Part shown: positions 3,042 through 63,374 of the stretch, piece after piece | Position numbering within the stretch: position 1 is the first letter of the stretch | How the letters are laid out: every line of letters starts with the position of its first letter | Origin: Pyrinomonadaceae bacterium | GTDB taxonomy: Bacteria; Acidobacteriota; Blastocatellia; Pyrinomonadales; Pyrinomonadaceae | DNA length: 64,000 nucleotides | Direction: 5' to 3' | Assembly (NCBI GenBank): GCA_045807745.1 | Contig: JBJMGT010000015.1 | Coordinates: 197,948-261,947 of the forward strand | Notes under the pieces: generated by a model | Told to the model about the DNA's origin: nothing | What the model saw: only the letters and a program-made list of their open reading frames with translations | Databases searched by the model: none | Position numbers and translations under genes: made by a program

Positions 3042-3580
3042 CGACTGAAGTTGCGGCGGACAAATTGAGTTGGCACAGTCTTCCGCCTGATTTGCGAACC
3101 GCGCTCGCGGGCCGGCTCGCCGGTCTCTGGGGCGCGCCGACGGACGAAGCCTCGTTCGATAGTCTCGCCGTAGACAAGCAACAAGCGTTGCTACTCCTCT
3201 TGCGGCGCATGCTGCAACTGGATTTATGGTTGGTGGTGCGCAAGGTAACGAACATCTATGGCGAGGGCGGCGTCGGGATGGCCTTTGACGCATGGCCTGT
3301 GGTCGTTGCCACGCTTACGCGCCGTCGAGACTTTACCCGCCGCTTCGCCAACCATCGCAACACGACCGGCGGTTTCTACGAACGCGGGCGCGGCACAGGT
3401 GTGTTACATTTTCTGTACGTGGACAAGCCGGGTGAGGCGCGCGCGTGGCAGGTGCATTTCGATCTCTACAGTCCTGTCTATTCGCCCCTGAGCGTGCTGC
3501 GCCATCTCCGGCACGAGTTTATCGCTAAGTACACGCCCGACTGGCGCGCCATCACAACTGCTTTGCGCGACACGGCCTAA
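3038..3580 (+). CDS. hypothetical protein (DUF) in the ligase operon
   Basis: 180 aa ORF. Its ATG overlaps the PilZ stop (ATGA), indicating translational coupling. No recognisable motif. Confidence 0.4.
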   Translation: MTTEVAADKLSWHSLPPDLRTALAGRLAGLWGAPTDEASFDSLAVDKQQALLLLLRRMLQLDLWLVVRKVTNIYGEGGVGMAFDAWPVVVATLTRRRDFTRRFANHRNTTGGFYERGRGTGVLHFLYVDKPGEARAWQVHFDLYSPVYSPLSVLRHLRHEFIAKYTPDWRAITTALRDTA

Positions 3581-11062: not shown

Positions 11063-11142
11063 GCGCCTCCGAATGGGAGAAAATTGGCCAAATGAACGCT
11101 CATCGATATGCTCACTTTCGTGAAGAGGCGGCCGAACTACGG

Positions 11143-11229
11143 TATATGCGGAACAGCTTCCGCATAACACCGGAATTTGGGTGTTATACGGAACAGCTTC
11201 CGCATAATACCGTTATAGGCGGAAGCCGG
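11143..11229. promoter_or_regulatory. 2.5 direct copies (40-bp period) of a palindromic site TATGCGGAA-cagc-TTCCGCATA; putative operator array
   Basis: tatatgcggaacagcttccgcataacac at 11143-11170 and gttatacggaacagcttccgcataatac at 11183-11210, plus a partial ataggcggaagc at 11213-11224. They lie 81-167 bp upstream of the membrane-protein start and downstream of the GATase gene. Confidence 0.5.
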
Positions 11230-11275: not shown

Positions 11276-12238
11276 TCACCCTTTGACTTCCCCGGCGTGC
11301 TTGAGAGATTCGCGCAGGAAGTTCTCGAAGATGATGCGCCCGTCGCGCGACTCGTTTGGATGTGCCCAGCGTGTGGCGCGCGTGCGGTCGTAGTCCTCGA
11401 AAGATTTTTCGAGATGGAATTGCACGGTGTAGATGAGTTGCCCGTCCGTCCGTTTGACCATCATCTGGTTGCGACAGAAGTAGGCGGTCGCGAGTAGCTT
11501 GAAGCCTTCGGGCACGCGGTCGAGTTCGAGGCCGTGGTTCTGCCAGACACGCAGGATGCGCGCCTCGGTTGTGTAATCCTGCCAGAGACCTGTCTGCGGA
11601 TCGTGTATGCCGGCGAAGATCGGGTCGTCCGGGTCGGTGATGCGGATGAAGCGATATTGATACTCGAAAGGCCGCTGCGCACGGTTCTCGTGTTGCTCAC
11701 GTTTGTCGAGCGTCTGGATGCGCGCCCCAAAGCTTAAGCCGATAAGTTGATGACCGCCGCAAATGCCGAGCACGGGCGTGCGCGTTGTGGTAATGAACTC
11801 GGCGAACTTGGCGAGCAGCGCCGGGCTGTAGAGATCAAAGTCGCTGAGCGTACCGCTCAAGACGATAGCATCGGGGCGGAAAGCGTAGGCCGCTGCGGCG
11901 ACCTCCGATAGATGAACTGTCTCCGTCACGGGCTGGCGCACGAGGCGCGAGATGTTATTGCGTATGTTGTTGAGGGCCATGCCGGCGATCTTGCGCTCGC
12001 GTTGCAGGTTAGTGTCCGTCCGCCGGCCCCATTCCGCCAATGCGACTTCAGAGAGATCGCTTCGGTCGCGCAAGAGATCGTCCACGACAAGGACGCGCGC
12101 CGTGTCAATCCGCTGCTCAATCGGTTCAAAGCGACAGTAAGAGCGCTGATTGAAAGGGAACGGTAGCGGTTCAGCTTGATCGATGGGGGTGCGCGGTGTT
12201 TGTTCGAGTTCCTGCATCGTTCTCTTAAAAGTCCACAA
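11276..12238 (-). CDS. class I glutamine amidotransferase-like protein (GATase1 / peptidase C26-like) with an N-terminal extension
   Basis: GICGGHQLIG matches the GxCxGxQ nucleophile elbow. VQFHLE matches the His-Glu triad motif. 320 aa. Confidence 0.7.
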   Translation of the reverse strand: MWTFKRTMQELEQTPRTPIDQAEPLPFPFNQRSYCRFEPIEQRIDTARVLVVDDLLRDRSDLSEVALAEWGRRTDTNLQRERKIAGMALNNIRNNISRLVRQPVTETVHLSEVAAAAYAFRPDAIVLSGTLSDFDLYSPALLAKFAEFITTTRTPVLGICGGHQLIGLSFGARIQTLDKREQHENRAQRPFEYQYRFIRITDPDDPIFAGIHDPQTGLWQDYTTEARILRVWQNHGLELDRVPEGFKLLATAYFCRNQMMVKRTDGQLIYTVQFHLEKSFEDYDRTRATRWAHPNESRDGRIIFENFLRESLKHAGEVKG

Positions 12239-12249: not shown

Positions 12250-12807
12250 TCACGCCCGGCGCAGCCGTTGTTTCGTATTCTGGTTGAACTGCGGCACGGC
12301 CGCGCCTGCGCCTGCCTCTTCGACCTCGCCCCGCGCCGCGCCGATCAGCGTGCGCCGCAAACGCGCACGCAATGCTGCTGTGCGCTCGCTTGCCCGGTGC
12401 TCTATGAGCAATAACATGTGCTGCCATGAAGATTCAAGCTCGTCCGCAAGCGGGGACGTTCGTGTAATGTCGTATGGGACGGCGACGGCGGCCACACCCA
12501 AGCGCGCGAAGACAGCCAGATAGCGCGCCGTCGCCAGATCGGGACACGACAGGCGCTTACGTCCGACCTTCAACTCCACGCCCAACAACGTGTGCTGCAC
12601 GGACACTTCCGTCCCGGCCTTCGCCGCCGGCAGCGCGTGCGAGCGCGTGCGCATGGGCATGATTTTTTCCCGATAAATGCGCGGCAGCCAAACGTCTGCC
12701 AACTCATCCTTGATCTGGGCCGCCAACTCGTCGGCGCTGCCCAGTCGCGCCTTTTTCTGCGCCACCGCCGGTTGCACCGCAACTGTCTGCCAAGCACACA
12801 TAAGCAC
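12250..12807 (-). CDS. hypothetical protein
   Basis: 185 aa ORF between the nuoN 3' hairpin and the GATase gene. Composition is plausible but it has no recognisable motif. Its annotated start overlaps the hairpin element. Confidence 0.3.
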   Translation of the reverse strand: MLMCAWQTVAVQPAVAQKKARLGSADELAAQIKDELADVWLPRIYREKIMPMRTRSHALPAAKAGTEVSVQHTLLGVELKVGRKRLSCPDLATARYLAVFARLGVAAVAVPYDITRTSPLADELESSWQHMLLLIEHRASERTAALRARLRRTLIGAARGEVEEAGAGAAVPQFNQNTKQRLRRA

Positions 12808-12878
12808 AGTGACAAGTGACGACTGACAAGTTGAGTGTGAATCTTAACTCGTCACTCGGCACTTGTCACTTGTCACTG
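12807..12878. repeat. heptamer-tandem hairpin element (GTGACAA type) at the 3' end of nuoN
   Basis: cagtgacaagtgacgactgacaagttgag - loop - ctcgtcactcggcacttgtcacttgtcactg. The arms are built from tandem GTGACAA-like heptamers. It overlaps the nuoN stop codon. A near-identical copy sits at 63283-63356. Confidence 0.7.
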
Positions 12879-14468
12879 TTTTCTGGCGATTGCTGCTTGG
12901 GTGCTGCGGAAGGCGTCGAGCACTTGGCCGGGGAAGAGGCCGAGGTAAAAGACGCCGAGGACGGTCAAGATGAGCACGATGGTGATGCTTGCGGGCACGC
13001 GCGGCGGCGTCCAAGCGGTCGTGCGTTCGCGGAAGAACATGACGACGACGAGGCGTAGATAGTAATAGACCGAGACGGCCGAGTTGAGCACGCCGACGAC
13101 GACAAGCGCGGTGTACTTCGCGCCGCCGGGCGCGCTCGACAGATTGAGCGCCGCGCGGAAGACCATGACCTTGCCCATGAAGCCCGCCGTCAACGGGATG
13201 CCGATCAGGCTGAGCAGAAAGAGCGTCAGCGTGAAGGCGAGCGCGGGCGCGCGGAAGCCTATGCCGTTGTAATCCTCGATCTCCGTGCGCCGGTCGCCGT
13301 TGCGCGCGATCATGGTCACAACAGCGAACGCGCCGAGGTTCATGACCGCATAGGAGAGCAGATAAAAGACGACGGCCGCGACGGCCTCACGCTGTTGCAC
13401 TTCCTCTAGAGCCGCGCCCGCCGCGACGAACCCGACGAGCGCATAACCCGCGTGCGCGATGGACGAGTAGGCCAGCATGCGCTTGACGTTTGTCTGCACG
13501 AGCGCGGCGAGGTTGCCGACAGACATTGTCAAGATCGCGAGCACATACAGCGTGTTCAGCCATACGTCGTGGATCGGCGCGGCCTGCGCGGTGCTGGCAG
13601 CGATAAAGGGAAAGCCGATGAGAAAGACGCGCATGAACGAGGCAAACCCGGCCGCCTTTGGCCCCGCGGCCATGAACGCGGTCACGGGCGTGGGCGCACC
13701 TTCATAAACATCAGGCGTCCAGACGTGAAACGGCGCGGTCGCGATCTTAAAACCGAAGCCGACGAGCAACAGCGCCGCGCCCGCGTACAGGAGCGCCGGG
13801 TAGGGCAGGCTCACGTCGCCGAGCCGCACGGCCAGCTCACGCAGGTTGGTCGTGCCCGCACCGTTGATGGTGGCCGTGCCGCCGTAGACCAGCGCGATGC
13901 CGTAGAGCAGGAAGGCGGACGAGAATGAGCCGAGGATGAAATACTTGATCGAAGATTCGTTCGAGCGCAGGTCAGTCCGGCGGAAGCCAGCCATCACGTA
14001 GGTCGAGATCGAGAGTAGCTCCAAGCCCAGAAAGATAATGACGAGGTCGCCGCCCGCCGCCATCAACATCATGCCGACGGTGGCGAACAGCAGGAGCGCA
14101 TGAAACTCGCCCGCCGGCAAACGCTCCCACTCAACCCAGATCATCGAGAGCAACACCGTCAGCGCCGCGACGACGATGAAGACGAGCGTAAACGACAGCC
14201 GCATCGGGTCGAGCACGATCATGCCGTTGTAGGCTTCGCGCAAACCCGGCGGCACACGCCACAGCCACACGCACGCGCCAGCCGCCGCCGCGAGACCCGC
14301 AAGCGACAATCCGCCCGTGAGCCAAGGGCGATCCTCGCGGCGCGTGAAAGCGTCGACGAGCATCACGAGCACGCCCGTGATGGAGACGATCAACTCCGGC
14401 AGGAGCAGCGTCAGGCTCACATCCGGGTTCGGTGCTTGCAGTGTCTGTAATGCCAACAAGTAGTTCAT
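12873..14468 (-). CDS. nuoN: NADH-quinone oxidoreductase subunit N
   Basis: 531 aa polytopic antiporter-like subunit, last of the nuo operon. The start ATG overlaps the upstream TlpA-like stop (ATGA). Confidence 0.9.
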   Translation of the reverse strand: MNYLLALQTLQAPNPDVSLTLLLPELIVSITGVLVMLVDAFTRREDRPWLTGGLSLAGLAAAAGACVWLWRVPPGLREAYNGMIVLDPMRLSFTLVFIVVAALTVLLSMIWVEWERLPAGEFHALLLFATVGMMLMAAGGDLVIIFLGLELLSISTYVMAGFRRTDLRSNESSIKYFILGSFSSAFLLYGIALVYGGTATINGAGTTNLRELAVRLGDVSLPYPALLYAGAALLLVGFGFKIATAPFHVWTPDVYEGAPTPVTAFMAAGPKAAGFASFMRVFLIGFPFIAASTAQAAPIHDVWLNTLYVLAILTMSVGNLAALVQTNVKRMLAYSSIAHAGYALVGFVAAGAALEEVQQREAVAAVVFYLLSYAVMNLGAFAVVTMIARNGDRRTEIEDYNGIGFRAPALAFTLTLFLLSLIGIPLTAGFMGKVMVFRAALNLSSAPGGAKYTALVVVGVLNSAVSVYYYLRLVVVMFFRERTTAWTPPRVPASITIVLILTVLGVFYLGLFPGQVLDAFRSTQAAIARKQ

Positions 14469-15034
14469 CAGTTGGTGTTAGTCTCGGCGCGCGCCGCCGT
14501 GCGCGCGAGCAGCGCGTCGAGCCGGGCGCGCACGTTCTTCTTATACTCAATCGGATCAGACGACATGCCCGTCTGTTTGGGCGCGGCGAACGCGCCCGTC
14601 TGGTCGAAGAAAACGATCATCGGCAACCGCAGCCGCTGGCTGAACTGCCCGAACGCCGCGTAGTCCGGATCGCGCAGCACGGGCATCGTCAAGCGATGCA
14701 GCTTTGCGTATTGCCGCACCCACGCGTCCGACGCCTGTTGTTTCGTATCGACGCTGACCCAGAGAAAACGCACGGGCTTGCGGGCGTACTCTTCTTGCAA
14801 CTCTGCGAGCGCCGTCAACTCCCACTCGCAGGGCTTACACCACGTTGCGCCGAATGAGACGAGCACCACCTGACCGCGCATCTCAGTCACGTCATAAATT
14901 TTGCCGTCCACGCCCTTCAGTTTTACGTTGAGCGCACCTGTGCGCGCGGACGCGGCTTGCGCCAAGACAACGCCTGAGCAGATCAGCATAAGCGCAACAA
15001 AGAAGAGCACATTTTTTAATCGTCTTAAGCTCAT
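14468..15034 (-). CDS. TlpA/ResA-like thiol-disulfide oxidoreductase (thioredoxin fold, signal-anchored) inserted in the nuo operon
   Basis: WCKPC CxxC active site. N-terminal hydrophobic anchor MSLRRLKNVLFFVALMLICSGVVLA. Start re-placed at ATG 15034, because the track start is GTG 15061. The stop overlaps the nuoN start. Confidence 0.7.
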   Translation of the reverse strand: MSLRRLKNVLFFVALMLICSGVVLAQAASARTGALNVKLKGVDGKIYDVTEMRGQVVLVSFGATWCKPCEWELTALAELQEEYARKPVRFLWVSVDTKQQASDAWVRQYAKLHRLTMPVLRDPDYAAFGQFSQRLRLPMIVFFDQTGAFAAPKQTGMSSDPIEYKKNVRARLDALLARTAARAETNTN

Positions 15035-15078
15035 TACTTCACAATGGGCCAAATCATGCACAACTTAACTTGCAAACT

Positions 15079-16614
15079 TCACTTGTTCTCCGCGACCGTA
15101 CCGCGACTCTGGGGCGCGACGACGCGCGTGCGCACGTCGTTGACGCTCGCCTGCGAGCGGCTCAGGAACGGGCGCGGGTAAGCGCCCATGTAGAGCATCA
15201 GGAGGAGGAGCGGCAAGAGCAAGCCAAGTTCGCGCCAACTCAGATCGGTCAGCCGCGCGTTCTTCTCGTTCGTCACGCGCCCGAACAGGACGCGCTGCAA
15301 CATCCAGAGCATATAGACCGCCGCCCAGATGACGCCCGTCGCCGCCAGCATCGTGATGATATAAGAGTGGCGCAGTATGCCAACCGTGTCCGATGTCCAA
15401 GTGCCTAGCAGGATCAGAAACTCGCCAATGAAGCCGTTGAGTAGGGGCAAGCCGACGGATGAGAGCGACGTGATCACAAAGACAGTTGCGAACCAGGGCA
15501 TCGGTTGAGCTAAGCCGCCGAACTCGGAGATCAAACGCGTGTGCCGCCGCTCGTAGATCATACCGACGATTAAAAATAGCGCGCCGGTCGAGACGCCATG
15601 ATTGAGCATCTGATAGAGCGCGCCTTGCATGCCCTGTTCCGTGAATGAGAACAGGCCCAACACGATGAAGCCCATGTGACTAACCGACGAGTAAGCGACG
15701 AGTCGCTTCACATCCGGCTGCACCATTGCGACCAACGCGCCGTAGATGATGCCGATGATGGCGAGCGTCACCATCAACCCGGAAAAATACTGCGCGGCCA
15801 CTGGGAAGAGCGTCAGGTTGAAACGCATCAGCCCGTATGTGCCCATCTTCAACAACACGCCCGCGAGGATGACAGAGCCGGCGGTCGGTGCTTCCGTGTG
15901 TGCATCCGGCAGCCACGTGTGGAAGGGAAACAGCGGCACTTTGATCGAGAAGGCGAGCGCAAAGGCGGCGAAGAGCCAGAACTCCCAATGTCCCGGATAC
16001 GGGAGGGCCGTCCCGTCTGCCAGCGCCTTGAGCATCAACGTGTAGTCAAACGTGCCGAAATGATAATAGAGCGCAATGATGCCGACGAGCATCAGCAGAC
16101 TGCCCAGCGCCGTGTAGATGAAAAATTTGACCGCCGCGTATATCCGGCGCTCGCCGCCCCAGACGCCGATCAGGAAATACATCGGCACAAGCGACGCCTC
16201 GAAGAACAGATAGAACAGCAGCAGGTCGAGCGAAACGAAGACGCCGAGCATCGCACCTTCGAGCAGCAGCAGAAACGCGTAGAAGGCTGTGTGTCGTTCT
16301 TCGACCGCATGCCACGTCGAGATGATCGAGATGGGCACGAGCAGAGTGGTCAACAGCACGAGCCACAGGCTGATGCCATCCACGCCGACGTGATAGCGCG
16401 CGCCGATCTGCCCGATCCAAGAGATGTCCTGCACGAAGCGAAACGTGCCGCTCGCACTGTCGCCTCTGAGCAGCAGGAGCGACAGCGCGAAGTTGACAAG
16501 CGAGAATACAAGCGCCAGCCAGCGCGTCTCAGCCGCGCCTCTACGCAGGAGCGCAACGACGACCGCGCCGCCGACCGGCAGCAGGATGAGTATGGTGATC
16601 AGGTAGCGCTCCAT
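15079..16614 (-). CDS. nuoM: NADH-quinone oxidoreductase subunit M
   Basis: 511 aa antiporter-like subunit with conserved nuoM/ND4 order between nuoL and nuoN. Confidence 0.9.
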   Translation of the reverse strand: MERYLITILILLPVGGAVVVALLRRGAAETRWLALVFSLVNFALSLLLLRGDSASGTFRFVQDISWIGQIGARYHVGVDGISLWLVLLTTLLVPISIISTWHAVEERHTAFYAFLLLLEGAMLGVFVSLDLLLFYLFFEASLVPMYFLIGVWGGERRIYAAVKFFIYTALGSLLMLVGIIALYYHFGTFDYTLMLKALADGTALPYPGHWEFWLFAAFALAFSIKVPLFPFHTWLPDAHTEAPTAGSVILAGVLLKMGTYGLMRFNLTLFPVAAQYFSGLMVTLAIIGIIYGALVAMVQPDVKRLVAYSSVSHMGFIVLGLFSFTEQGMQGALYQMLNHGVSTGALFLIVGMIYERRHTRLISEFGGLAQPMPWFATVFVITSLSSVGLPLLNGFIGEFLILLGTWTSDTVGILRHSYIITMLAATGVIWAAVYMLWMLQRVLFGRVTNEKNARLTDLSWRELGLLLPLLLLMLYMGAYPRPFLSRSQASVNDVRTRVVAPQSRGTVAENK

Positions 16615-16620
16615 AAACGT

Positions 16621-18963
<2,343 letters not shown>

Positions 18964-18981
18964 AAATAACTTAACGCGCCG

Positions 18982-19284
18982 CTACAGCTTCAGCACGCTT
19001 GCCTCGTCTACGTCGAGCGATTCGCGGTTGCGGAAGACAGCGATGATGATGCCTAAGCCGACGGCCGCTTCGGCGGCGGCGACGGTCATGACGATAAAGA
19101 CGAACAGTTGCCCCGACACGTCGCGGAAAAAGCTGGAGAACGCCACGAGCGACAGGTTCACGGCGTTGAGCATCAGCTCGATGCACATGAACATGGCAAT
19201 GGCGTTGCGCTTGATGATGACACCCGTGACGCCGATGGTGAACAAGACGGCGGACAGGGCCAGATACCATGACAGCGGGATCAT
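18982..19284 (-). CDS. nuoK: NADH-quinone oxidoreductase subunit K
   Basis: 100 aa protein with three TM helices, in conserved position. Confidence 0.9.
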
Positions 19285-19985
19285 TCGTCGCCCTCCCTTT
19301 CGTGTGCTCTATCCCAGAGACCTGATTGGGCGGCCACCTCCGCCGTCGTGTGCGCAACGACGGGCGAGCCGTCGCCGACGCGGGCCGGATCAAGCGTCTG
19401 CGCCGTGAGTACCTGCGAGCCGGGCACGACCAAGGCCGTTGTGCGTAGGGCTGTGCGCCGTGCCAGCGACATCGCGCCGACGAGCGCCATCAAGATCAAG
19501 ATGGACGTGATCTCAAACGGCAGCAGGTAAGTGGTGAACAACCCAGCACCGATGGACGCAGTCAACCCGACGCTCGATGGATTGAGCGCGACGACGGGGC
19601 TGTCCGGCGCGGCCGGCGCGTTGTTGACGAAGTAGAGTATGAACGCCCCTTCGGCGAAGAGCGCGGCCGCCAGCAGCACCGCGATGGGCACGAGGTAGCT
19701 CAGCCGTACAGGCTTTCTGACCTCGTCCTCAACATTTAATAACATGATGACGAAGACGACGAGCACCATGATCGCGCCCGCGTAGACGATAATCTGCACG
19801 GCGGCGATGAACGGCGCGGCGAGCGTCAGATACAGCCCGGCGAGGGCGGCGAAGACGGCGATCAGAGAGATCGCGCAATAGAGCGGGTTGCGCTGTACGA
19901 CGAGCGCAACGGCAGCGCCAATGGCCAGCCCGGCGAGCAGGAAGAAAATTATGTATGGGGCACTTTGAGTTAACGACTCAAACAT
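19281..19985 (-). CDS. nuoJ: NADH-quinone oxidoreductase subunit J with a C-terminal extension
   Basis: 234 aa with an ND6-like TM core and a ~60 aa hydrophilic tail. It overlaps nuoK by 4 nt. Confidence 0.85.
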
Positions 19986-20021
19986 AGTTACTCGCTGCGG
20001 CCCAACTTAGACGGCGCGCAC

Positions 20022-21086
20022 TCAGGATGCGAAGAAGAACACAATCGTCGCGGTCAGGATCAAATTCAGAATCGCGACGGGCAACAGAAACTTCCAACCG
20101 AAATTCATCAACTGGTCGAAGCGGAAACGCGGCAGCGTCCCGCGCAGCCAGATGTAGAGAAACAGGAAGCAGATAACCTTGGCCAAAAAGTAGACGATGC
20201 CGAGCGCGGGGAACGTCGCCACGCCGGGGCCGTTCCAACCGCCGAAGAACATCGTCGTCGCCAGCATCGAGACAGTGAACATGTTGACGTACTCAGCCAT
20301 GAAGAAGAGCGCGAACTTCAAGGCGCTGTACTCGGTGTGGAAACCCGCGACCAACTCGGTCTCGGCCTCCGGCAGATCGAACGGCACGCGGTTCGTTTCG
20401 GCGATGGCCGAGATTAGATAGATCACAAAGCCGATAATCTGTGGGAAGACGTTCCACTTCGGGATGACATAAAACCAATAGCCTGATTGCAACTCGACAA
20501 TGTGATAAAGATCGAGCGAACTCGACAGCAGCACGACGCCGACGAGACTCAAGCCCAGCGACAGTTCATAAGAGATAAGCTGCGCCGACGCGCGCAAGCC
20601 GCCCATCAAGCTGTACTTGTTATTCGACGACCAACCCGCGAGTGCGATGCCATAGACGCCGACCGACGTGATCGCCAGCACGTACAGCAGCGCCACGTCG
20701 AAGCGCGCGACGACGAGCGGGAAGGTGATACGTGTGAAGGGGATCGTGATCTCAGGCCCGAACGGGTAGACGATGATCGGCATCAGCGCGGCCGTGATCG
20801 CCAGCATCGGCGCGAGCAGATAGATGAAGCGCGTCGACTTGTCGGGGATGATCTCTTCTTTGAAAATAAACTTCAACAGGTCAGCGAAGGGTTGCAGCAC
20901 GCCGCCCGGCCCCACGCGATTCGGGCCGACGCGCCCCTGCATGAAGCCCAGAATCCGTCGCTCGGCGAGCACCGTGTATGCCACGACCATCAACACCGCG
21001 ACGAACGCGACGTTGATGCCGATGAATTGATAAATACCCTGCGCCACCGTCGGCCCGACAAGATGATTCAGCCAGTCCATAGGCAT
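20022..21086 (-). CDS. nuoH: NADH-quinone oxidoreductase subunit H
   Basis: ND1-like polytopic protein. The ATG at 21084-21086 is used, because the track start is TTG 21089. It is followed 36 bp later by nuoJ with no nuoI in between. Confidence 0.9.
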   Translation of the reverse strand: MPMDWLNHLVGPTVAQGIYQFIGINVAFVAVLMVVAYTVLAERRILGFMQGRVGPNRVGPGGVLQPFADLLKFIFKEEIIPDKSTRFIYLLAPMLAITAALMPIIVYPFGPEITIPFTRITFPLVVARFDVALLYVLAITSVGVYGIALAGWSSNNKYSLMGGLRASAQLISYELSLGLSLVGVVLLSSSLDLYHIVELQSGYWFYVIPKWNVFPQIIGFVIYLISAIAETNRVPFDLPEAETELVAGFHTEYSALKFALFFMAEYVNMFTVSMLATTMFFGGWNGPGVATFPALGIVYFLAKVICFLFLYIWLRGTLPRFRFDQLMNFGWKFLLPVAILNLILTATIVFFFAS

Positions 21087-21090
21087 CAAA

Positions 21091-21177
21091 GGATGAAGAA
21101 TGAAGGATGAAGGATGAATAAGTACAAAGCTCGTTCATCCGTCTTGTCTTCATCCCTCATCCTTCATCCTTCATCCT
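21091..21177. repeat. heptamer-tandem hairpin (GGATGAA type) between nuoG and nuoH
   Basis: ggatgaagaatgaaggatgaaggatgaa - loop - ttcatccctcatccttcatccttcatcc. It abuts the nuoH start codon. Confidence 0.75.
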
Positions 21178-21182
21178 TTCTT

Positions 21183-23474
21183 TCAGTCTCCCGCGACCGC
21201 TTCGGCGCGGCGCAATGATGTGTCAACCGTTAGCTGGTAGAGCGGCGAAATGAGCACCGTCGGCGGCTTGGGGTTGCCAGCGTAGAGCAGAGGGAACTGT
21301 GGCGTCTTGCTCGTCAGCGTGCCGGGCTTGAATAACTCGTGCCCGACCTTTGGTGTCTCCGTCTGGCGCGCGCCGGATGCTGGCAGTTGCTGTACTCGTT
21401 GGCGCACCTCGTTCAGCGCGGCAGACACATCGCGCCTGCCCGCGAGTGCGTGCTTAACCTGCACGGGCTGGCTCTCATCTTTCAGCAGCGGAAAGCGCAA
21501 GCCCGCATACGCCGGCACGTGCTCGGCGAGTTCGCGGAAGACGGCGCTTGCGGACATCTGGAAGCCAAAGTCTGCGTTGAGTGCGGCGGCGAGCGCGCTT
21601 GTGATCATCCAGTCGGGGCGCGCCTGATGGACGGGCGGAATAGACTGGCGCACACGCTGTACCTGACCCGCGTTGTTCGTATATGTGCCGTCCGTCTCGG
21701 CGAACGAGGCAGCGGGGAAGACGACATCAGCGAGCGCGGTTGTCTCCGTTTCAAATAGCTCCTGCACTACTATGAAGTCGAGTTGGCTGAGCGCCTCTTC
21801 ACGCCCGCTCAGTTGTTCAGGCAGCAAGCTGCCTGCGACATAGAGCGCGCGCAAACCTTGCCCCGCTTGATCGAGCAACTGCTGGACGCTCAAACGGTTG
21901 TTCATTAAACCGATGTCGTGCACGCCCACGCTGTTGTTGTAGAGCGGCAGCGGGTGGAATAGAAAACGACGACCGGCGCGCTCGCCCAGCGTTTGCGGCA
22001 ACTGCGCGAGCACTGTCTGAGCCGCCGCGCTCAACTCGCCGCCGAAAAGCAAGACGCAATCACCCTGCGTTTCGTCGATCAGACGGCGCACGTCTGCAAG
22101 AGCTTCCGCTTTGACGCCGAGCTTGCCGGCCGCCGTCTCATCATCTTCAGCGCCCGCGAGCGCGAGCACGGCCGCGTCCTCCGCGCCGGGGTTGATGTGG
22201 ATGAACTGCGCAGCCTGCTCTTTCAGGCGAATGGGCACGCTGTTGATGATGACGAGCCGCGCGCCGCCGTTCCTGACCGCTTGCCTGATCTGTCGGCCCG
22301 TCAACGGTTGCAACTCTTCCGGCTCGCCGCCAATCAAGATGATCGTCTTTGCGTGGCGTATCTCAGCATGTGTTGCGATGGGCGCGCCCAAGTGCGCAAA
22401 GAAGGGCGCGAGCGAGAAGGCGTCCGAAGCTGTGAAATTTTCAGTCCCGATGACTTCGCGCGCGAATTTCAACAGCGCGTAGTTCGCCTCGTTCGTCAGG
22501 CGCGGACTGCCGATGATGCCGAAGGCGTCAGCGCCGTGTTGCTCGCCGATGGCGCGCATCTTCTGGGCCGTGAAATCCAGCGCTTCGTCCCACGTCGCCG
22601 GGATCAACTTGCCGCCCTTACGATAGCGAATCAGCGGCGTCTTGATGCGCTCTTCGTGATTGATGAATGGGTGCGCGAAGCGCCCCTTGATGCACAGAAA
22701 CTCGCCGTTGATGCCGTCGACATAACGATCACGCGCGACCGCGCGCATCACTTCACCGGCGCGCGCGCCCAAAGACATCTGGCAGCCGTCCGAACAGAAT
22801 GTGCAAGTCGTGATCGTCTGCGCCAATTCCCAAGGGCGCGCTTGATGTCTGTAGGTCGCATCGAGCAGCGTCCCCGTCGGGCAGACCTCTATGCAGTTGC
22901 CGCATTGCGAGCAGTTGAGCCAACCATCGTATGTGCCGATGACCGTATGCGCGCCGCGCCCGCCCGCTTCGATGGCGTCCTCGCCCATCCACTCGTCGCA
23001 GACGCGCGTGCAGCGTTTGCACAGGATGCAACGCTGCGGATCGTTTGCGACCACGGGCGAGAGGAATTTTTCCGGCGCGTAGTTTTTCTTCTCGCGGAAA
23101 CGCTCTTCGAGGCCACCCCAATCAAAAACCATCTCCTGCAACTCGCACTCGCCGCCGCGATCACAGACCGGACAATCGAGCGGGTGATTGGCGAGCAGGA
23201 ACTCGACCATCGCGCGTTGCGCCTTCTCGATCTCTTCCGATTCGGTTGTGACGATCATGCCGTCCGTGCAAGTGATCGTGCAGGACGTTTGCAACTTGGG
23301 CATCTTCTCGATCCGCACTAGGCACATGCGACACGAGGCTTGCAGCGCGAGATCGGCGTAGTAACAGAAGGACGGGACGGCGTGGCCATTTGTGCGGCAT
23401 ACGTCGATCAGGCGCGCGCCTTTCTCGACTTCGTAAACGTTGCCGTTGATCGTGACTTTGACGAGATCAGCCAT
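21183..23474 (-). CDS. nuoG: NADH-quinone oxidoreductase subunit G (75 kDa Fe-S / molybdopterin-like)
   Basis: 763 aa. N-terminal 2Fe-2S and 4Fe-4S Cys clusters (CRMCLV, CPVCDRGGEC, CILCKRCTRVC) and a molybdopterin-oxidoreductase-like body. Confidence 0.9.
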   Translation of the reverse strand: MADLVKVTINGNVYEVEKGARLIDVCRTNGHAVPSFCYYADLALQASCRMCLVRIEKMPKLQTSCTITCTDGMIVTTESEEIEKAQRAMVEFLLANHPLDCPVCDRGGECELQEMVFDWGGLEERFREKKNYAPEKFLSPVVANDPQRCILCKRCTRVCDEWMGEDAIEAGGRGAHTVIGTYDGWLNCSQCGNCIEVCPTGTLLDATYRHQARPWELAQTITTCTFCSDGCQMSLGARAGEVMRAVARDRYVDGINGEFLCIKGRFAHPFINHEERIKTPLIRYRKGGKLIPATWDEALDFTAQKMRAIGEQHGADAFGIIGSPRLTNEANYALLKFAREVIGTENFTASDAFSLAPFFAHLGAPIATHAEIRHAKTIILIGGEPEELQPLTGRQIRQAVRNGGARLVIINSVPIRLKEQAAQFIHINPGAEDAAVLALAGAEDDETAAGKLGVKAEALADVRRLIDETQGDCVLLFGGELSAAAQTVLAQLPQTLGERAGRRFLFHPLPLYNNSVGVHDIGLMNNRLSVQQLLDQAGQGLRALYVAGSLLPEQLSGREEALSQLDFIVVQELFETETTALADVVFPAASFAETDGTYTNNAGQVQRVRQSIPPVHQARPDWMITSALAAALNADFGFQMSASAVFRELAEHVPAYAGLRFPLLKDESQPVQVKHALAGRRDVSAALNEVRQRVQQLPASGARQTETPKVGHELFKPGTLTSKTPQFPLLYAGNPKPPTVLISPLYQLTVDTSLRRAEAVAGD

Positions 23475-23485
23475 TCGTTACAACC

Positions 23486-24844
23486 TTAGACCGTAGTGAG
23501 CGCGCCCTTTTCCTGTTCAGCTTGCGCGATGAGCGGGAGCAGATGGCGCTTGAAATCTTCCGGAAACTTTTTGAGCGCCGATTGAATGGGCCAAGCCGCG
23601 GCGTCGCCGAGCGGGCAGAACGATTTGCCCTCGATGTTGTCGCAGATGTCCAAGAGCAGTTGCGCGTCTTCGGGTTGGCCTTCGCCTTTGGCGATGCGCT
23701 TGAAGACTTTGACGAGCCAGTCCGTGCCTTCGCGGCAGGGCGTGCACCAGCCGCACGACTCATGTTTGTAGAACTCGGTCAGATTCTTCGTGGACTCGAA
23801 GATGTCCACCGTGTCGTCCATCACGATGAAGCCGCCCGAACCGACCATCGAGCCGGCCGCGACCAAGCCCTCGTAGTCCATCTTCACTTTTTTGCCGACG
23901 ATGTCCGCCGCCGGCATGATGTAAACGCTTGAACCGCCCGGTATGACCGCCTTCAGTTGCCGCCCGCCCGTAATCCCTTGGCAGTCCACCATGATGAACT
24001 TCTCCATGTCGTCATAACCCATCGGCAGTTCATAGACGCCGGGGCGTTTAACGTGACCGGAGACAGACCAGAGCTTTGTGCCGCCGCTCTTTTCCGTGCC
24101 GAGTTTTTGATAAGCCTCGCCGCCCAGCTTGATGATGTCGGGCACGGCCGTCAGCGTCTCGACGTTGTTGACGACGGTCGGCGCGGCGTAGAGACCAGAG
24201 ACGGCGGGGAAGGGCGGTTTCATACGCGGGTGACCGCGCATGCCTTCGAGCGAACTCAAGAGCGCCGTCTCCTCGCCACAGATGTACGCGCCCGCGCCCG
24301 TGTGCGTGTAGATTTCGCACGCGAAGCCAGTGCCTAAAATCTTTTCGCCGAGCAAGCCGGCGGCGCGGGCTTCAGCCAGCGCCTCGTCCATGATGTTGAT
24401 GAGATAGCGATACTCGCCGCGCGTGTAGATGTAATTGGTGCGCGCGCCGAGCGCGTAAGCAGCGATGAGCATGCCCTCGATCAGCATGTGCGGATCGAGT
24501 TCCATCAGATAGCGATCCTTGAATGTGCCCGGCTCGGACTCGTCCGCGTTGCAGACAACGTACTTCGGCTTCGGCGAATCCTTCGGCACAAAGCTCCACT
24601 TCATGCCGGTGGGAAAACCCGCGCCGCCGCGCCCACGCAAAGCGGACTTCTTCACTTCATTAATCACGTCGTCCGGCGACATGCCATTGAGAACTTTTTG
24701 CAACGCCTCGTAACCGCCGTTGCGCCGGTAGACGTCGAGCGAGCGCGAACGTTCGAGATGAACGCGCTTGAGTTGGAGCGGCTCGCAGCCGATAGCACCG
24801 ATAAACATAATCTTTAGCAGGGAAGAGAGCGGCTCGATGAGCAA
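23486..24844 (-). CDS. nuoF: NADH-quinone oxidoreductase subunit F (NADH/FMN-binding 51 kDa)
   Basis: [18 protein letters not shown] region. The C-terminal 4Fe-4S motif region [12 protein letters not shown] is present. Confidence 0.95.
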
Positions 24845-24865
24845 GCGATCAAATCAAACGCTTAC

Positions 24866-25435
24866 TTATCGAACCTTCACGCTAAACACGTACTCGTCAC
24901 GCTCGCAGGCGTCTAGTAGTTCGTCAACCTTCTCGGTCGTCAGATTCTCGTGATAGTCAAACCCAAGCTGCAACATCGGGGCTGTCCCGCACGAGCCGAG
25001 ACATTCAACTTCGGAGAGCGTGAACTTGCCGTCCGGCGTCGTCTCGCCCGGCTTGATGCCAAGCCGCTTAGCACACTGTTCAGTCACACGCCCCGCACCC
25101 ATAATCTTGCACGACAGCGTGCGACAGACCTGTAGGTGGTACTTGCCGACCGGTTGCATGTAGAGCATCGAGTAGAACGTCGCAGTCTCCCACACGTCCG
25201 TGATGCGCACGCCCAATCTATCGGCGAGATAGGCCACGCCCGGCTTGTCGAGCCAACCGCGCTCGCGTTGCACGATGAACATCAACGGCAACATCGCCGA
25301 GCGTCGGCGCTCCGCCGGATACTTGGCCAGATGCCGGTCGATCTCCGCCTCGACCGCGGCCGAGAAGTGCGCGATCTCTTCCGGCACTTTCGCCTCCTGC
25401 GGCAGAGGGTTATGCGGCGTGAATTGCTCACTCAT
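24866..25435 (-). CDS. nuoE: NADH-quinone oxidoreductase subunit E (24 kDa, 2Fe-2S)
   Basis: Thioredoxin-like 2Fe-2S subunit with the cysteine pattern C..C....C..C (CRTLSC, CLGSCG). Confidence 0.9.
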   Translation of the reverse strand: MSEQFTPHNPLPQEAKVPEEIAHFSAAVEAEIDRHLAKYPAERRRSAMLPLMFIVQRERGWLDKPGVAYLADRLGVRITDVWETATFYSMLYMQPVGKYHLQVCRTLSCKIMGAGRVTEQCAKRLGIKPGETTPDGKFTLSEVECLGSCGTAPMLQLGFDYHENLTTEKVDELLDACERDEYVFSVKVR

Positions 25436-25437
25436 AC

Positions 25438-25523
25438 GATTTCGGAATGCGGAATGCGGATTGTGGAATGAAGCGAGCGCGATTGCTGTTTAACCGCAAT
25501 CCGCATTCCGAAATCCGCAATTG
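25438..25523. repeat. heptamer-tandem hairpin (GGAATGC type) between nuoD and nuoE
   Basis: tttcggaatgcggaatgcggattg...gcaatccgcattccgaaatccgc. It lies between the nuoD stop (25526) and the nuoE start (25435). Confidence 0.7.
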
Positions 25524-25525
25524 CT

Positions 25526-26746
25526 TTATCGATCAATCTCACCCAACACGATATCAATCGAGCCAATGATGGCGACCACATCGGCGATCATCTCGCCCTC
25601 ACACATGTGGGGCAGCGCCGAGAGATTGACGAAACTGGGGCCGCGGAAATGCACGCGCGCAGGCTTCGGCCCGCCGTCGGACTTGACGTAGACGCCCAAC
25701 TCGCCCTTCGACGCCTCGATGGCGTGATAGACCTCGCCCGCCGGGACGTTGAAGCCTTCGGCGACGATCAGGAAGTGATGTATGAGCGCGTCCATGTGCG
25801 TCTTCATCGCTTCGCGGTCGGGCAGCACGACCTTGGGCGCGTCCGCTTTGACGGGGCCGGGTTTTAGTTTGCCGAGCGCTTGGCGTGAAATCTTCCACGA
25901 CTCATGCATCTCGCGCATGCGCACCATGTAACGCGACCACACATCGCCGACCGTCTCAACCGGAATCTCAAAGTCGTATTGCTCGTAACCCGAATATGGA
26001 TTGGCCCGGCGGAGGTCAACGGCGACGCCGCTCGCGCGCAAAGACGGCCCAGTCAGGCCCAGATCGATAGCGTCTTCGGCCGAGACGATCCCGATCCCTT
26101 GCGTGCGCCTCTGGAAAATCCGATTGCCGGTGAGCAAGTTGTGAAACTCTTCGAGCGCGGGCGGGAATTTATCAATGAACTGTTGGACGCGGCGATCAAA
26201 CCCGGCCGGCAAGTCCATCATCAATCCGCCGATGCGGAAATAAGACGGCGTCAGCCGCCCGCCCGATGCCGCCTCGATCAAGTTCAGAATCTTCTCGCGC
26301 TCGCGGAAGCAGTAAAAGAAAACCGTCATCGCGCCAAGGTCAAGTGCGTGTGTGCCGAGCCAGACGAGGTGCGAAGCGATGCGTTGCAACTCGCACATCA
26401 TGACGCGTATGACCTGCGCGCGTTCGGGTATCTCAAGCCCCAACAACTTCTCGACCGCCATCACGTAAGCGAGGTTGTTGCCGAGCGGGTTGAGATAGTC
26501 CATCCGGTCGGTGATGACGATGCCTTGCTGATACTTTTTGTACTCGAACAGCTTCTCCATCCCCGTGTGGAGGTAGCCGATGTCGGGCGTACACTTGACG
26601 ACCATCTCCCCGTCCAGCACCAACTCAAGCCGCAACACGCCGTGCGTCGAAGGGTGCTGCGGCCCCATCGAGATCGTCATCTGCGTATCCAGCGGACGAT
26701 CAACTACCTCGAATTGTGGCGGCAAGTTTGTGGTTGTGGCACTCAT
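25526..26746 (-). CDS. nuoD: NADH-quinone oxidoreductase subunit D (49 kDa)
   Basis: Conserved NuoD core. Start re-placed at MSATTTNLPPQFEV (ATG 26744-26746), because the 22 aa N-terminal extension in the track is a translation of the GTGCTGA hairpin. Confidence 0.9.
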   Translation of the reverse strand: MSATTTNLPPQFEVVDRPLDTQMTISMGPQHPSTHGVLRLELVLDGEMVVKCTPDIGYLHTGMEKLFEYKKYQQGIVITDRMDYLNPLGNNLAYVMAVEKLLGLEIPERAQVIRVMMCELQRIASHLVWLGTHALDLGAMTVFFYCFREREKILNLIEAASGGRLTPSYFRIGGLMMDLPAGFDRRVQQFIDKFPPALEEFHNLLTGNRIFQRRTQGIGIVSAEDAIDLGLTGPSLRASGVAVDLRRANPYSGYEQYDFEIPVETVGDVWSRYMVRMREMHESWKISRQALGKLKPGPVKADAPKVVLPDREAMKTHMDALIHHFLIVAEGFNVPAGEVYHAIEASKGELGVYVKSDGGPKPARVHFRGPSFVNLSALPHMCEGEMIADVVAIIGSIDIVLGEIDR

Positions 26747-26754
26747 CGTTAAAA

Positions 26755-26826
26755 GTGCTGAGTGCTGAGTGCTGAGTGCTGAGTCTGAGCTTTGACACTC
26801 AGCACTCAGCACTCAGCACTCAGCAC
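26755..26826. repeat. perfect heptamer-tandem hairpin (GTGCTGA)x4 - loop - (TCAGCAC)x4 between nuoC and nuoD
   Basis: gtgctgagtgctgagtgctgagtgctga gtctgagctttgacac tcagcactcagcactcagcactcagcac. A 28-bp perfect stem that directly abuts the nuoC stop (26827) and the nuoD start (26746). Confidence 0.85.
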
Positions 26827-27372
26827 TTAAGTTAAGCTGTACGGCTCGTAGCCGCGCAGCGGAAAATCTTTGCGGAGCGCATGTCCCTGCCAGTCGTCGG
26901 GCAGGAGAATGCGGCGCAAGTCTGGGTGACCATCAAAGACGATGCCCAGCAGATCGAAGGTCTCGCGTTCGTGCCAGTTGGCCGTGCGCCAGACGCCGGT
27001 GACAGTGGGCACATGCGCGTCGTCTTCGTCTAGTAAAACTTTCAGGCGCAGCCGGTGATATTTCGTTGTCGAGAACAGATGATAGTTGACGGCGAAGCGC
27101 GGCTCTTCTTCCGGGCCATTATCCGTGCCGCAAAGATCGGCGAGCAGGTTAAACTCCAAACCCGGCGTCGTCTTCAAGTATGAACAGATCGTGACGATCT
27201 GCTCGCGCGGCACGATGACTGTGATCTCGCCGAAAGCCTGCATGACATCGGCGACCCATTCGGCGTGCTCCTGTCGCAGCGACTCGATGAGCGGCAGCAG
27301 CGCCGGATATTCCAACGGCGTCCCCGTAGTCTCTTCGGCCAAACTCTGTGCGCGCGCAATATCTTGGCTCAT
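26827..27372 (-). CDS. nuoC: NADH-quinone oxidoreductase subunit C (30 kDa)
   Basis: Conserved NuoC. Start re-placed at MSQDIARAQ (ATG 27370-27372). The track's N-terminal extension translates the TTGTCCG repeat. Confidence 0.88.
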   Translation of the reverse strand: MSQDIARAQSLAEETTGTPLEYPALLPLIESLRQEHAEWVADVMQAFGEITVIVPREQIVTICSYLKTTPGLEFNLLADLCGTDNGPEEEPRFAVNYHLFSTTKYHRLRLKVLLDEDDAHVPTVTGVWRTANWHERETFDLLGIVFDGHPDLRRILLPDDWQGHALRKDFPLRGYEPYSLT

Positions 27373-27475
27373 TGTCCGTTGTCCGTTGTCCGTTGTCCGT
27401 TGCTCAAGCTCATCCGTTGCCGCTAACAACTACAAGCATAACGACGGACAACTGACCACTGACAACGGGCAGTCT
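27373..27475. repeat. heptamer-tandem imperfect hairpin (TTGTCCG/CGGACAA type) between nuoB and nuoC
   Basis: (ttgtccg)x4 at 27373-27400, paired with gacggacaactgaccactgacaacggg at ~27443-27469. On the mRNA the run AACGGACAACGGACAACGGACAACGGACA is directly 5' of the nuoC ATG. Confidence 0.65.
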
Positions 27476-28123
27476 TTACGACGACTTCCGCCGCTCGTGC
27501 CGCGAAGGGATCGTGTAGGGGCGTGAAATCGGCAGTTGCGTAGGGCTATCGGCGGCTGCCTCGTTCGTGGCGGAGACGCCGCCGGCGGGCAACGTACCGG
27601 GCGGTACGGCCTCGCGCGCCTCTTCGCGTTGCACATCATGACGGTCGCGCAAGCTTTCTTTCATCACCTTGTCTTGCAGCATCATGACCGCATGAATCAA
27701 CATTTCGGGGCGCGGCGGGCAACCCGGTATGTACACGTCCACAGGCACGACCTTATCTACGCCCTGCACGATGGCGTAGTTGTCGAACACACCGCCCGAC
27801 GTGGCGCACGCACCCATCGAGATGACCCACTTCGGCTCCGGCATCTGATCGTAGATGCGGCGCAGCACCGGAGCCATCTTGCGCGAGACGCGGCCCGAGA
27901 CGATCATCACGTCCGCTTGGCGCGGGCTGGCGCGAAAGACTTCCGAGCCGAAGCGGGCGAGATCGTTACGCGCGCTCGTCGCGTTCATCATTTCGATGGC
28001 GCAGCAGGCGAGACCGAACGTCGCCGGCCACAGAGAAGACTTGCGTGCCCAGTTGACCAACGAATCAAGCTTCGTCGTCAACACTTCCGGCAACGCTTCG
28101 GCCAGCACATTATCGAGACCCAT
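27476..28123 (-). CDS. nuoB: NADH-quinone oxidoreductase subunit B (20 kDa, N2 cluster) with a C-terminal extension
   Basis: CCAIEM and GCPPRP Fe-S ligand motifs. A ~50 aa C-terminal tail. A canonical SD GGAGG lies 7 nt upstream of the start. Confidence 0.92.
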
Positions 28124-28137
28124 AAAACCTCCGACTT

Positions 28138-28611
28138 TCAGGCGGCGCGTTTCACCGTAACCGCGCGCCCCTCTTGCACAGCCAGCGCCCGCGCTTCCGC
28201 TTCGGCTTCACGCCGCGCCCGCTCGTTCCAATCGAACAGCCCCTTCTTCCACACGTAGACATAGCCGACCAACAAGAGCGCAATGAAGATCATCATCTCG
28301 CCGAAGATGATTGCGCTGGCAGGCCCGCCCGCATGCACAAATTGTCGGAAGACGACCGCCCACGGCATCAGAAAGATCAATTCAATATCGAAGAGGATAA
28401 AGATCATCGCGATCAAGTAGAATTTGACCGAGAAGCGTTCGCGCGCCGAGCCGACCGGGTCTTTGCCGCACTCGTAGGGCATCAACTTTGTGCGCGTCGG
28501 CTTGCGTTGCCCGACGTACTGCGACAAGAGTATGTTGCCGCCCGCAAAGCCGCCAGCCACGCCAAGCATCAAAAGGATCGGCAGGTAATCCATCAAGGCA
28601 AAGTTACGCAC
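28138..28611 (-). CDS. nuoA: NADH-quinone oxidoreductase subunit A with a C-terminal Ala/Glu-rich tail
   Basis: ND3-like protein with three TM helices. First gene of the operon. A divergent intergenic region lies upstream. Confidence 0.88.
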
Positions 28612-28715
28612 ACCGGCCTCCTGTCAGCTTAGGCTGCAACGAGCGCGAATTGAGCTTGAGAATCATGTAACAAGCGCATGGTAGTGCAACGTAGGGGGGC
28701 TGTCAAGCAACTCGT

Positions 28716-52731: not shown

Positions 52732-54627
<1,896 letters not shown>

Positions 54628-63240: not shown

Positions 63241-63268
63241 TTGACACTCATAGGTGCGAACGTATAAT
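63241..63268 (+). promoter_or_regulatory. near-consensus sigma70 promoter upstream of the thiolase gene
   Basis: TTGACA (63241-63246), a 16-nt spacer, then TATAAT (63263-63268). Confidence 0.55.
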
Positions 63269-63282
63269 CAAATTAACAGTAA

Positions 63283-63356
63283 CGAGTAACAAGTGACGAG
63301 TGACAAGCTAAGGACAAGTCTTTGCCTCGTCATGCGTCACTTGTTACTTGTCACTG
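63283..63356. repeat. second copy of the GTGACAA-type heptamer hairpin element, in the thiolase 5' leader
   Basis: cgagtaacaagtgacgagtgacaag...cctcgtcatgcgtcacttgttacttgtcactg is followed by gcttttat, then SD GAGGTG, then ATG 63375. It is ~85% identical in its arms to the 12807-12878 element. Confidence 0.7.
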
Positions 63357-63374
63357 CTTTTATGAGGTGTGAAC

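Follow-up and report, generated by a model that had tools for sequence, protein, structure and literature searches.

What are the long hairpins that stand between the genes of a bacterial nuo operon, built on one plan from different heptamers? The question is raised by a Pyrinomonadaceae bacterium (Acidobacteriota), in a stretch of 64,000 nucleotides that we analyzed as a whole (contig JBJMGT010000015.1 of assembly GCA_045807745.1, positions 197,948 to 261,947; hereafter the window). An earlier inspection of the letters (the sequence-only reading) had described five such hairpins and suggested three roles for them: mRNA processing or stability elements, translational regulators, or a self-propagating repeat class. 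The last of these is now the best supported, by the dispersal and the turnover of the elements. Judged by sequence comparison, they would behave as selfish or at least self-propagating DNA, and this is the best-supported reading of what follows.

The window contains six heptamer hairpins of 70–105 nt each. Their arms are made of three to five tandem heptamers, and the opposite arm is the reverse complement of these. Five of them (E1 to E5) stand at junctions of the nuo operon (12873..28611, minus strand; nuoA, B, C, D, E, F, G, H, J, K, L, M, a TlpA-like gene, and nuoN), at the places that the sequence-only reading had given: Tandem Repeats Finder reported period-7 arrays in both arms of every site, and an inverted-repeat finder paired the arms. 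The sixth (E6) was missing from that earlier list. E1 (12806..12879, minus strand) combines the units GTGACAA/GTGACGA with their complement at the junction of nuoN and the next open reading frame (ORF); the nuoN stop codon TGA (12875-12873) falls within its 5' arm, and the next ORF starts at GTG 12807 or ATG 12801. E2 (21088..21179, minus strand) is built of GGATGAA and TTCATCC, and lies between nuoG (stop TGA 21185-21183) and nuoH (ATG 21086). E3 (25435..25519, minus strand) has units of the GCGGAAT/GCGGATT family and separates nuoD (stop TAA 25528-25526) from nuoE, whose ATG at 25435 is base-paired at the base of the stem. In E4 (26753..26828, minus strand), 4.5 copies of GTGCTGA face 4.5 copies of TCAGCAC between nuoC, whose stop TAA (26829-26827) overlaps the stem base, and nuoD (ATG 26746). 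E5 (27373..27471, minus strand) has TTGTCAG/TTGTCCG in its 5' arm and four copies of CGGACAA in its 3' arm; it follows nuoB (stop TAA 27478-27476), and the nuoC ATG at 27372 is immediately 3' of the stem. E6 (63277..63356, plus strand; GTAACGA/GTGACGA/GTGACAA) belongs to the unit family of E1 and stands in the 5' leader of a thiolase gene. A 12/12 match to the sigma-70 promoter (TTGACA-16-TATAAT, 63241..63268, plus strand) lies a few bases upstream of E6, so that E6 would form the 5'-terminal stem-loop of the transcript; a Shine-Dalgarno (SD) motif, GAGGTG (63364-63369, plus strand), and the thiolase ATG at 63375 come after it, and E6 ends 19 nt before this ATG.

Folded as RNA, the elements E1 to E6 have free energies of –38.3, –54.4, –40.2, –66.1, –47.6 and –45.0 kcal/mol, with z-scores of –6.1, –9.8, –5.2, –10.7, –5.4 and –5.4, respectively, against 200 dinucleotide shuffles per element. 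Not one of the 200 shuffles of any element folds as stably as the native sequence. The description of the hairpins as perfect is right for E4, the stem of which runs over 32 bp without a mismatch rather than the 28 bp first counted, but not for E1, E3, and E5; in these three the complementarity of the arms is 80–95%, and E5 has a decayed 5' arm. The hairpins are no assembly artefact, because an independent assembly from the SRA (L001; related loci are numbered in this way below) shows the nuoD|nuoE element without a single difference, and hairpins of the same class are present in complete long-read chromosomes of relatives. A scan of the window against Rfam 15 gave no match at the elements at the gathering threshold; the one match that it did give, a SAM_alpha riboswitch at 54683-54758, is not at any of them.

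In the sense of the mRNA, each nuo element of the window begins at, or a few bases from, the upstream stop codon and ends 0–6 nt before the next start. Between 0 and 6 unpaired nucleotides flank the folded stems on each side, compared with 6–18 nt at hairpin-free junctions of the same operon. As the sequence-only reading had noticed, the automatic ORFs of nuoD (25526-26812) and nuoC (26827-27429) run into the hairpins; the true starts are ATG 26746 and ATG 27372. Gene callers extend ORFs into the elements, as with nuoC and nuoD here, and this leads to mis-annotated starts in these lineages.

To place the elements among relatives, we collected loci by a NuoD search with one genome per species, which gave 80 loci from Pyrinomonadaceae or Blastocatellia (Acidobacteriota) at 84–91% identity, 1.24 Mb in total with 21–64 kb per genome; gene models outside nuo are crude. 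The detector called at least three tandem units with a reverse-complement partner at a match of at least 80% within 130 nt. It found five elements at period 7 in the window versus 0–1 at periods 5, 6, and 8–11, and 175 elements at period 7 in the related loci, where periods 5, 6, and 8–12 gave 0–3 and shuffled sequence gave none. A recurring class, as had been supposed, is what these hairpins are. The 175 elements use 76 different units. None of them lies inside a gene and 166 are at nuo junctions; all six elements of the window are likewise intergenic. By junction, elements were present at C|D in 38/80, at D|E in 37/77, at G|H in 27/53, at K|L in 19/47, at B|C in 16/77, and at H|J in 11/52. 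With a rough gene model, an element was present in about 27% of co-directional nuo gaps, in 9 of 129 other co-directional gaps, and in none of 55 convergent ones. The link to nuo is an enrichment, roughly four-fold, and no specificity. The statement that the hairpins punctuate the nuo operon holds to this extent; the same elements also stand beside RF2|FtsK, EtfB|EtfA, GspG|GspH, and FabF|EtfB.

These further neighbors come from metagenome contigs, a sample selected by pattern (3.5 units of GTGATRR), for which all figures rest on 80 contigs among the matches listed. Within these matches there are at least 52 hairpins in at least 40 contigs with a GC content of 33–71%, often several elements with different units per contig. 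A stop codon is abutted by 49 of the 52, and 34 of the 52 lie in co-directional stop-to-start gaps. Apart from the four gene pairs just named, the neighbors listed include Psd|EpmA-like genes and genes for methylmalonyl-CoA mutase, an ECF sigma factor, and a glycosyltransferase; none is related to nuo. The same pattern gave 14 hairpins in 35 loci on viral contigs. One IMG/VR contig of 6.5 kb (L227) carries three (1144-1256, 1725-1892, and 3212-3326), and an identical viral element, which ends right at an ATG, is found in four loci on three contigs (L207, L208, L222, and L231, two of the loci being on one contig). Abundant in Pyrinomonadaceae, the class extends to other bacteria and to viral contigs.

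We next consider how the units are shared. At one junction, units differ across genomes, with related genomes carrying related units: 12.6% of same-junction pairs from different genomes are at a unit distance of 1 or less, versus 6.1% of pairs that differ in both genome and junction. For pairs within one genome at different junctions, the figure rises to 23% versus the same 6%. In many relatives a single family fills three to six junctions of one genome, and L029, L034, and L038 each have one unit family at five to six sites. The window, which with its 64 kb is at the upper end of the 21–64 kb sampled per relative, has five unit families among its six elements. That the heptamers are specific to their loci, as the sequence-only reading had it, is not the case, since each family of the window recurs at other junctions in other genomes: GGATGAA (E2) at many G|H junctions and one non-nuo site, units of the GCGGAAT family (E3) at C|D, D|E, or G|H in L003, L004, L008, and L038, and TTGTCCG (E5) at K|L of L004. 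Moreover, E1 and E6, 50 kb apart, have GTGACRA in common, and their flanks are alike too. In some cases the loop is shared as well. It is identical at B|C and D|E of L038, 94% identical over 33 nt at F|G and G|H of L034, and 80% identical over 35 nt at F|G and J|K of L040. The elements are dispersed: unit families, and sometimes whole elements with their loops, appear at different junctions and in different genomes.

Upon comparison of close relatives, we noted that the elements change while the genes stay. The nuoD genes of L006 and L007 are 96% identical in DNA, yet unrelated elements stand at D|E and G|H of the two; at K|L, L006 is empty and L007 is filled, with the family that is found at D|E of L006; and at C|D the two differ by one 7-nt unit. 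The number of unit copies also varies between the two arms of an element and between close relatives. Turnover by gain, loss, replacement, and change in unit number is far faster than that of the flanking genes. In addition, some elements are nested, with a second hairpin of a different unit within the loop of the first (L029 16808-16928, nuoG|nuoH of L007, and L025 4943-5053), which looks as if loops were preferred sites of insertion or nucleation.

The placement of the elements is as regular as their sequence is variable. They begin 0–4 nt past the stop codon, and the median distance from their end to the next start is about 4 nt; junction lengths are bimodal (0–30 and 70–120 nt). Almost the only place they take is the untranslated gap right after a stop codon, usually also right before a co-directional start without an SD. 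A strict SD motif was present at 1 of 142 element junctions versus 88 of 327 element-free ones (Fisher p about 1e-14), and at 43% of element-free gaps of 5–25 nt; the presence of an element and of an SD are mutually exclusive. In 67% of genomes the nuoA|nuoB junction, which in the window has a GGAGG SD and no hairpin, contains an SD, and in 3% it contains an element. The corresponding figures for B|C, C|D, D|E, G|H, and K|L are 0–4% with an SD and 40–61% with an element. Hairpin-free alleles of these hairpin-prone junctions are 6–15 nt long and lack an SD too. Separately, an apparent enrichment of stop codons in the 5' arm (580 versus 468, with a z-score inflated by the repeat structure) vanished once the genuine in-arm stop was discounted, and the content is then what composition predicts.

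Taken together, these observations make it on balance probable that the elements are palindromic heptamer microsatellites of about 70–120 bp that propagate themselves, have become dispersed, and are tolerated at translationally coupled junctions. The 7-nt period would come from replication slippage, for which the heptamer bias of bacterial simple repeats is a documented precedent, and the copies would spread by a transposition-like or gene-conversion route. Watson-Crick complementarity of the arms stands at about 91% although the units are entirely different from genome to genome, so that it must be actively maintained. A strand-symmetric DNA process, such as hairpin-templated correction or fold-back copying, could do this; alternatively, selection might act on the overall stability of the stem and not on single RNA pairs. 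Accumulation would take place where it is least harmful, in the untranslated gap after a stop codon and above all at coupled junctions without an SD, which are numerous in the long nuo operon. At such junctions the folded stem would bring the stop codon and the next start to within about 4–6 unpaired nucleotides of each other, as in hairpin-free operon junctions. Since the spacing of stop and start is preserved by the folded stem, coupling by termination and reinitiation would survive the insertion; we infer this coupling model from the positions of stems, stops, and starts. Once transcribed, the elements would be very stable RNA hairpins, which, by analogy with repetitive extragenic palindromic (REP) elements, could secondarily affect ribosome termination and mRNA decay.

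Several points weigh against self-propagation. The roughly four-fold enrichment at nuo, together with the fact that the same five junctions are filled again and again across 80 genomes, could reflect a selected function. No transposase-like ORF or domain that might mobilize the elements was found in the window, small ORFs included; no conserved terminal motif was found in the elements; and no target-site duplication, such as flanks a MITE with its IS-derived terminal inverted repeats, is evident in the single clean pair of filled and empty sites (K|L of L006 and L007). Loop similarity overall is modest, with 4.1% versus 1.5% of pairs at 80% identity or more, a statistic that is noisy for short loops, and we put weight on the three long-loop cases alone. 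The whole-element copies are 2–4 kb apart in the same operon, and local gene conversion could mimic mobility. Last, microsatellites that merely spread do not explain why nearly every element has the same handedness.

This handedness is pronounced. The 5' arm is the G-rich one and the 3' arm the C-rich one in a ratio of 146:17 in the nuo loci, 13:1 on the viral contigs, and 44:4 in the metagenome, among the matches listed. A polarity relative to transcription, which the first of these ratios might suggest, was rejected, as sites with minus-strand genes show that the palindrome reads alike on both strands. Because it does, the handedness is an intrinsic chirality, and the arm beside the downstream start codon is consequently poor in G whichever strand is transcribed. 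One hypothesis is that the chirality arises by fold-back copying of a G-rich nascent strand.

The best surviving alternative is that the elements are functional RNA selected in the nuo mRNA: sites for RNase III or other processing, barriers to 3' exonucleases, or obligatory coupling devices that hide SD-less starts, with a sequence that drifts and a stem that is kept. We consider this possible, if hardly probable. It would account for the occupation of the same five junctions in 40–61% of 80 genomes despite differing units, with arms that stay complementary; stems of 25–35 bp suffice for RNase III; the start codon lies at or inside the stem base where an SD is absent; E6 sits at the 5' end of a transcript from a consensus promoter, where a stabilizing 5' hairpin would be expected; and REP hairpins that lie no more than 15 nt from a stop codon are known to act on translation, by ribosome stalling, and on mRNA decay (PMC12306157). 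RNA selection on individual pairs of the sense strand should leave an excess of G.U over A.C at imperfect stem positions. No sign of it was seen (118 G.U versus 120 A.C), sense and antisense strands fold equally well (mean minimum free energy –42.4 and –42.2 kcal/mol), and a signature of selection on sense-strand RNA was rejected on these two grounds. This equality is itself compatible with RNA function, and to that extent tells less in favor of self-propagation, as one mismatch per 30-bp stem may be nearly neutral and the elements young. Other observations are harder to reconcile with a selected RNA. Genomes that are 96% identical differ by the presence, absence, or full replacement of elements; some genomes have gaps of 6–15 nt at these junctions that evidently work; the same families occur beside unrelated genes and on viral contigs; and a constraint on structure alone gives no reason for arms of tandem heptamers.

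A bolder proposal, which we think unlikely, retains self-propagation and adds function. The elements would be a new kind of self-propagating DNA with a fixed handedness (G-rich strand 5' to 3' towards the dyad) and no recognizable transposase, copied for instance by fold-back self-templating, spread over several phyla and phages, and co-opted as hairpins that juxtapose stop and start for SD-independent reinitiation in long operons.

A purely local origin we regard as improbable. Each hairpin would have grown in place from a chance short palindrome by slippage and quasi-palindrome correction, without movement, and shared units would reflect convergence or mutational bias. The documented slippage bias towards heptamers fits such growth, as do the differences in copy number between arms and between close relatives, and the related units that related genomes carry at the same junction (the 12.6% versus 6.1% given above). 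By contrast, growth in place does not predict that non-repetitive loops of 33–35 nt are 80–94% identical across junctions of one genome, that one family is at D|E in L006 and at K|L in the 96%-identical L007, that E1 and E6 share units and flanks, or that elements are nested in the loops of others.

It is very improbable that the arrays are binding sites for a protein that recognizes 7-nt repeats in single strands, such as cold-shock or S1-type OB-fold proteins, with the hairpin gating access. CspB is reported to bind heptamer repeats with one protein per unit, and such binding was proposed for TAACTGA repeats (PMC4679880); the elements here also precede SD-less starts. At least 76 different units in nuo loci, and five families in the window, sit poorly with a sequence-specific binder, and both arms are locked in a duplex of –38 to –66 kcal/mol. 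Scarcely credible, finally, are intrinsic transcription terminators or attenuators: the hairpins are stable and come right after stop codons, with TTTT after E4, but only 5–8% of the elements have a T-rich tail (at least five T in the 8 nt after the stem), a terminator scan flagged none in the window, the elements lie in mid-operon before distal genes needed in equal amounts, none is in the 55 convergent gaps, and the stems are two to four times as long as those of typical terminators; the elements, which lack U-tracts, are not terminators.

Self-propagating heptamer hairpins would have several partial precedents. The sequence-only reading had held that the hairpins follow no known REP, CRISPR, or terminator pattern. 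This is true as regards CRISPR and terminators; a CRISPR array, with its direct repeats of 24–48 bp and unique spacers, is ruled out by contiguous 7-nt units in inverted arrays. Heptamers as such are a known pattern, as inverted heptamer pairs (PMC4692102) and intergenic heptamers (PMC4679880) had been described. In many bacterial genomes no simple repeats are as over-represented as heptamers, for which an origin by polymerase slippage has been put forward (PMC4679880); the over-representation of heptamers in bacterial intergenic DNA has been known since 2007, with a detailed literature said not to exist (PMC4692102). Like heptamer simple sequence repeats in general, the elements here consist of tandem 7-nt units and lie in non-coding DNA.

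The closest architectural precedent is in Xanthomonas, where each genome has about 70–75 convergent inverted pairs of GGGAATC arrays that are potential stem-loops (Rehm et al., 2015, PMC4692102); tandem heptamers are known there and in Nostoc as GGGAATC and GGGGAYT (PMC4692102). Likenesses include two nearby arrays of a 7-nt unit on opposite strands, an intergenic and transcribed location, positions conserved between species with variable length and sequence, and an orientation, the only one reported, in which the G-rich strands converge, equal to the G-first chirality found here. Xanthomonas differs in using one genome-wide unit that is prone to form G-quadruplexes, whereas dozens of families without a G-tract requirement are used here: GTGCTGA, GGATGAA, GCGGAAT, TTGTCCG, and GTGACAA are not of the G-quadruplex type, and most units lack a GGG tract. 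Nor are abutment of stop and start, absence of an SD, rapid replacement, or whole-element copies described for the Xanthomonas pairs.

A second precedent is a single repeat, TAACTGA, with direct copies in Beggiatoaceae, cyanobacteria, and Bacteroidetes (MacGregor, 2015, PMC4679880). Its arrays stop about 1 nt short of start codons, in intergenic regions that are poor in ribosome-binding sites, in ribosomal-protein and other operons, and a role in translation is suspected. These repeats differ in having one fixed unit in direct, presumably unstructured order (they are predicted to be unstructured), with one inverted pair among 170 sets (PMC4679880). REP, BIME, and REPIN elements resemble the hairpins in being extragenic palindromes that are dispersed and often lie between cistrons or close behind a stop codon, and REP elements are regarded as selfish, with fast dynamics within genomes (PMC3116915). 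REPs are 20–40 bp long, have no tandem units, show GTAG/CGTC as a conserved head, and are linked to RAYT transposases; by contrast, this head is absent at the 5' foot of all six window elements, whose 70–105 nt exceed the size of a REP. REP elements are the closest functional analogue, and their definition does not cover the hairpins.

Heterocystous cyanobacteria provide another comparison. Their STRR heptanucleotide repeats (short tandemly repeated repetitive sequences) were reportedly described by Mazel et al. in 1990, and Elhai et al. in 2008 are said to have found small dispersed repeats embedded in heptamer arrays. STRRs are likewise intergenic tandem heptamers, with several families per genome and about 100 copies; they differ as mainly direct arrays in another phylum, for which no systematic stop-to-start placement is known to have been reported. 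Coupling of cistrons through mRNA secondary structure is exemplified by rpmI-rplT and by phage MS2. There, as in the hairpins here, a start without an accessible SD lies in a stem that is opened by the ribosome of the upstream cistron; the two paradigms are unique and conserved structures, whereas the hairpins are a repeat-built and rapidly replaced family. Nostoc heptamer arrays include few inverted pairs (PMC4692102). In our full-text search and recent surveys, outside which the 1990 and 2008 papers fall, we found no account of the multiplicity of unit families, of the stop-to-start placement, or of the exclusion of the SD, and found no description of the handedness, the extreme turnover, or an occurrence in Acidobacteria or on viral contigs. 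The element class is only sketchily described in the literature.

The host operon itself deserves some remarks. NCBIfam models confirm NuoA, B, C, D, E, F, G, H, and N. Between nuoM and nuoN they show a TlpA/ResA-like gene for a thiol-disulfide oxidoreductase (14468-15061, minus strand), which has a 1-nt overlap with the start of nuoN. The hairpin-free junctions of the operon measure 0–36 nt. A candidate nuo promoter (28678-28706, minus strand; TTGACA-17-TACCAT, 10/12) lies about 70 nt 5' of the nuoA start and faces a divergent ORF that starts at 28716. We also noted that nuoI is absent between nuoH and nuoJ, where the gap in the window is 36 nt (19985-20022); in 52 related loci nuoI is likewise missing from this gap, the length of which is 92 nt at the median and never more than 217 nt. 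The ferredoxin-like subunit must be encoded elsewhere.

The nuoC|nuoD gap is 580–1030 nt in ten relatives. Identified by eye, the longest ORF of the insert appears to encode a membrane protein of about 290 residues with a TonB-C-like C-terminus in L010, L011, L041, L049, L056, and L063, and probably a Uma2-like (DUF820) endonuclease of about 195 residues in L017, L028, and L040; in L062 no convincing ORF was found. No transposases are among the proteins encoded by the inserts of these ten relatives (TonB_C-like or Uma2-like). In L051, L053, L055, and L075 the same junction has no hairpin and instead three direct copies of a GATCCGTG-like motif, spaced by 12–14 nt, before the nuoD start, which may be a different kind of junction element.

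Two further features of the window are unconnected with heptamers. The SAM_alpha (SAM-II) riboswitch match (54683-54758, minus strand) scores 44.5 bits against a gathering threshold of 36 (E 9e-7) and adjoins the 5' side of an ORF at 52732-54645 (minus strand). The family is named for Alphaproteobacteria, and an acidobacterial match is therefore worth recording. At 11145-11206, placed between the ORFs 10466-11170 and 11276-12238, there is a composite palindrome with 27-nt arms, TATGCGGAACAGCTTCCGCATAACACC and GGTGTTATACGGAACAGCTTCCGCATA, each of which has a short hairpin within it.

What the heptamer hairpins offer to the biology of these bacteria is a natural experiment, in which hundreds of independent elements at a few conserved junctions come with filled and empty alleles and with replacements between near-identical genomes. 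They also present three testable regularities, namely the strict placement from stop to start, the mutual exclusion with the SD, and the near-universal handedness. If mobile, the elements would add a new type to miniature mobile DNA; if functional, they would give a major soil phylum a widespread means of coupling its cistrons or insulating them from one another.

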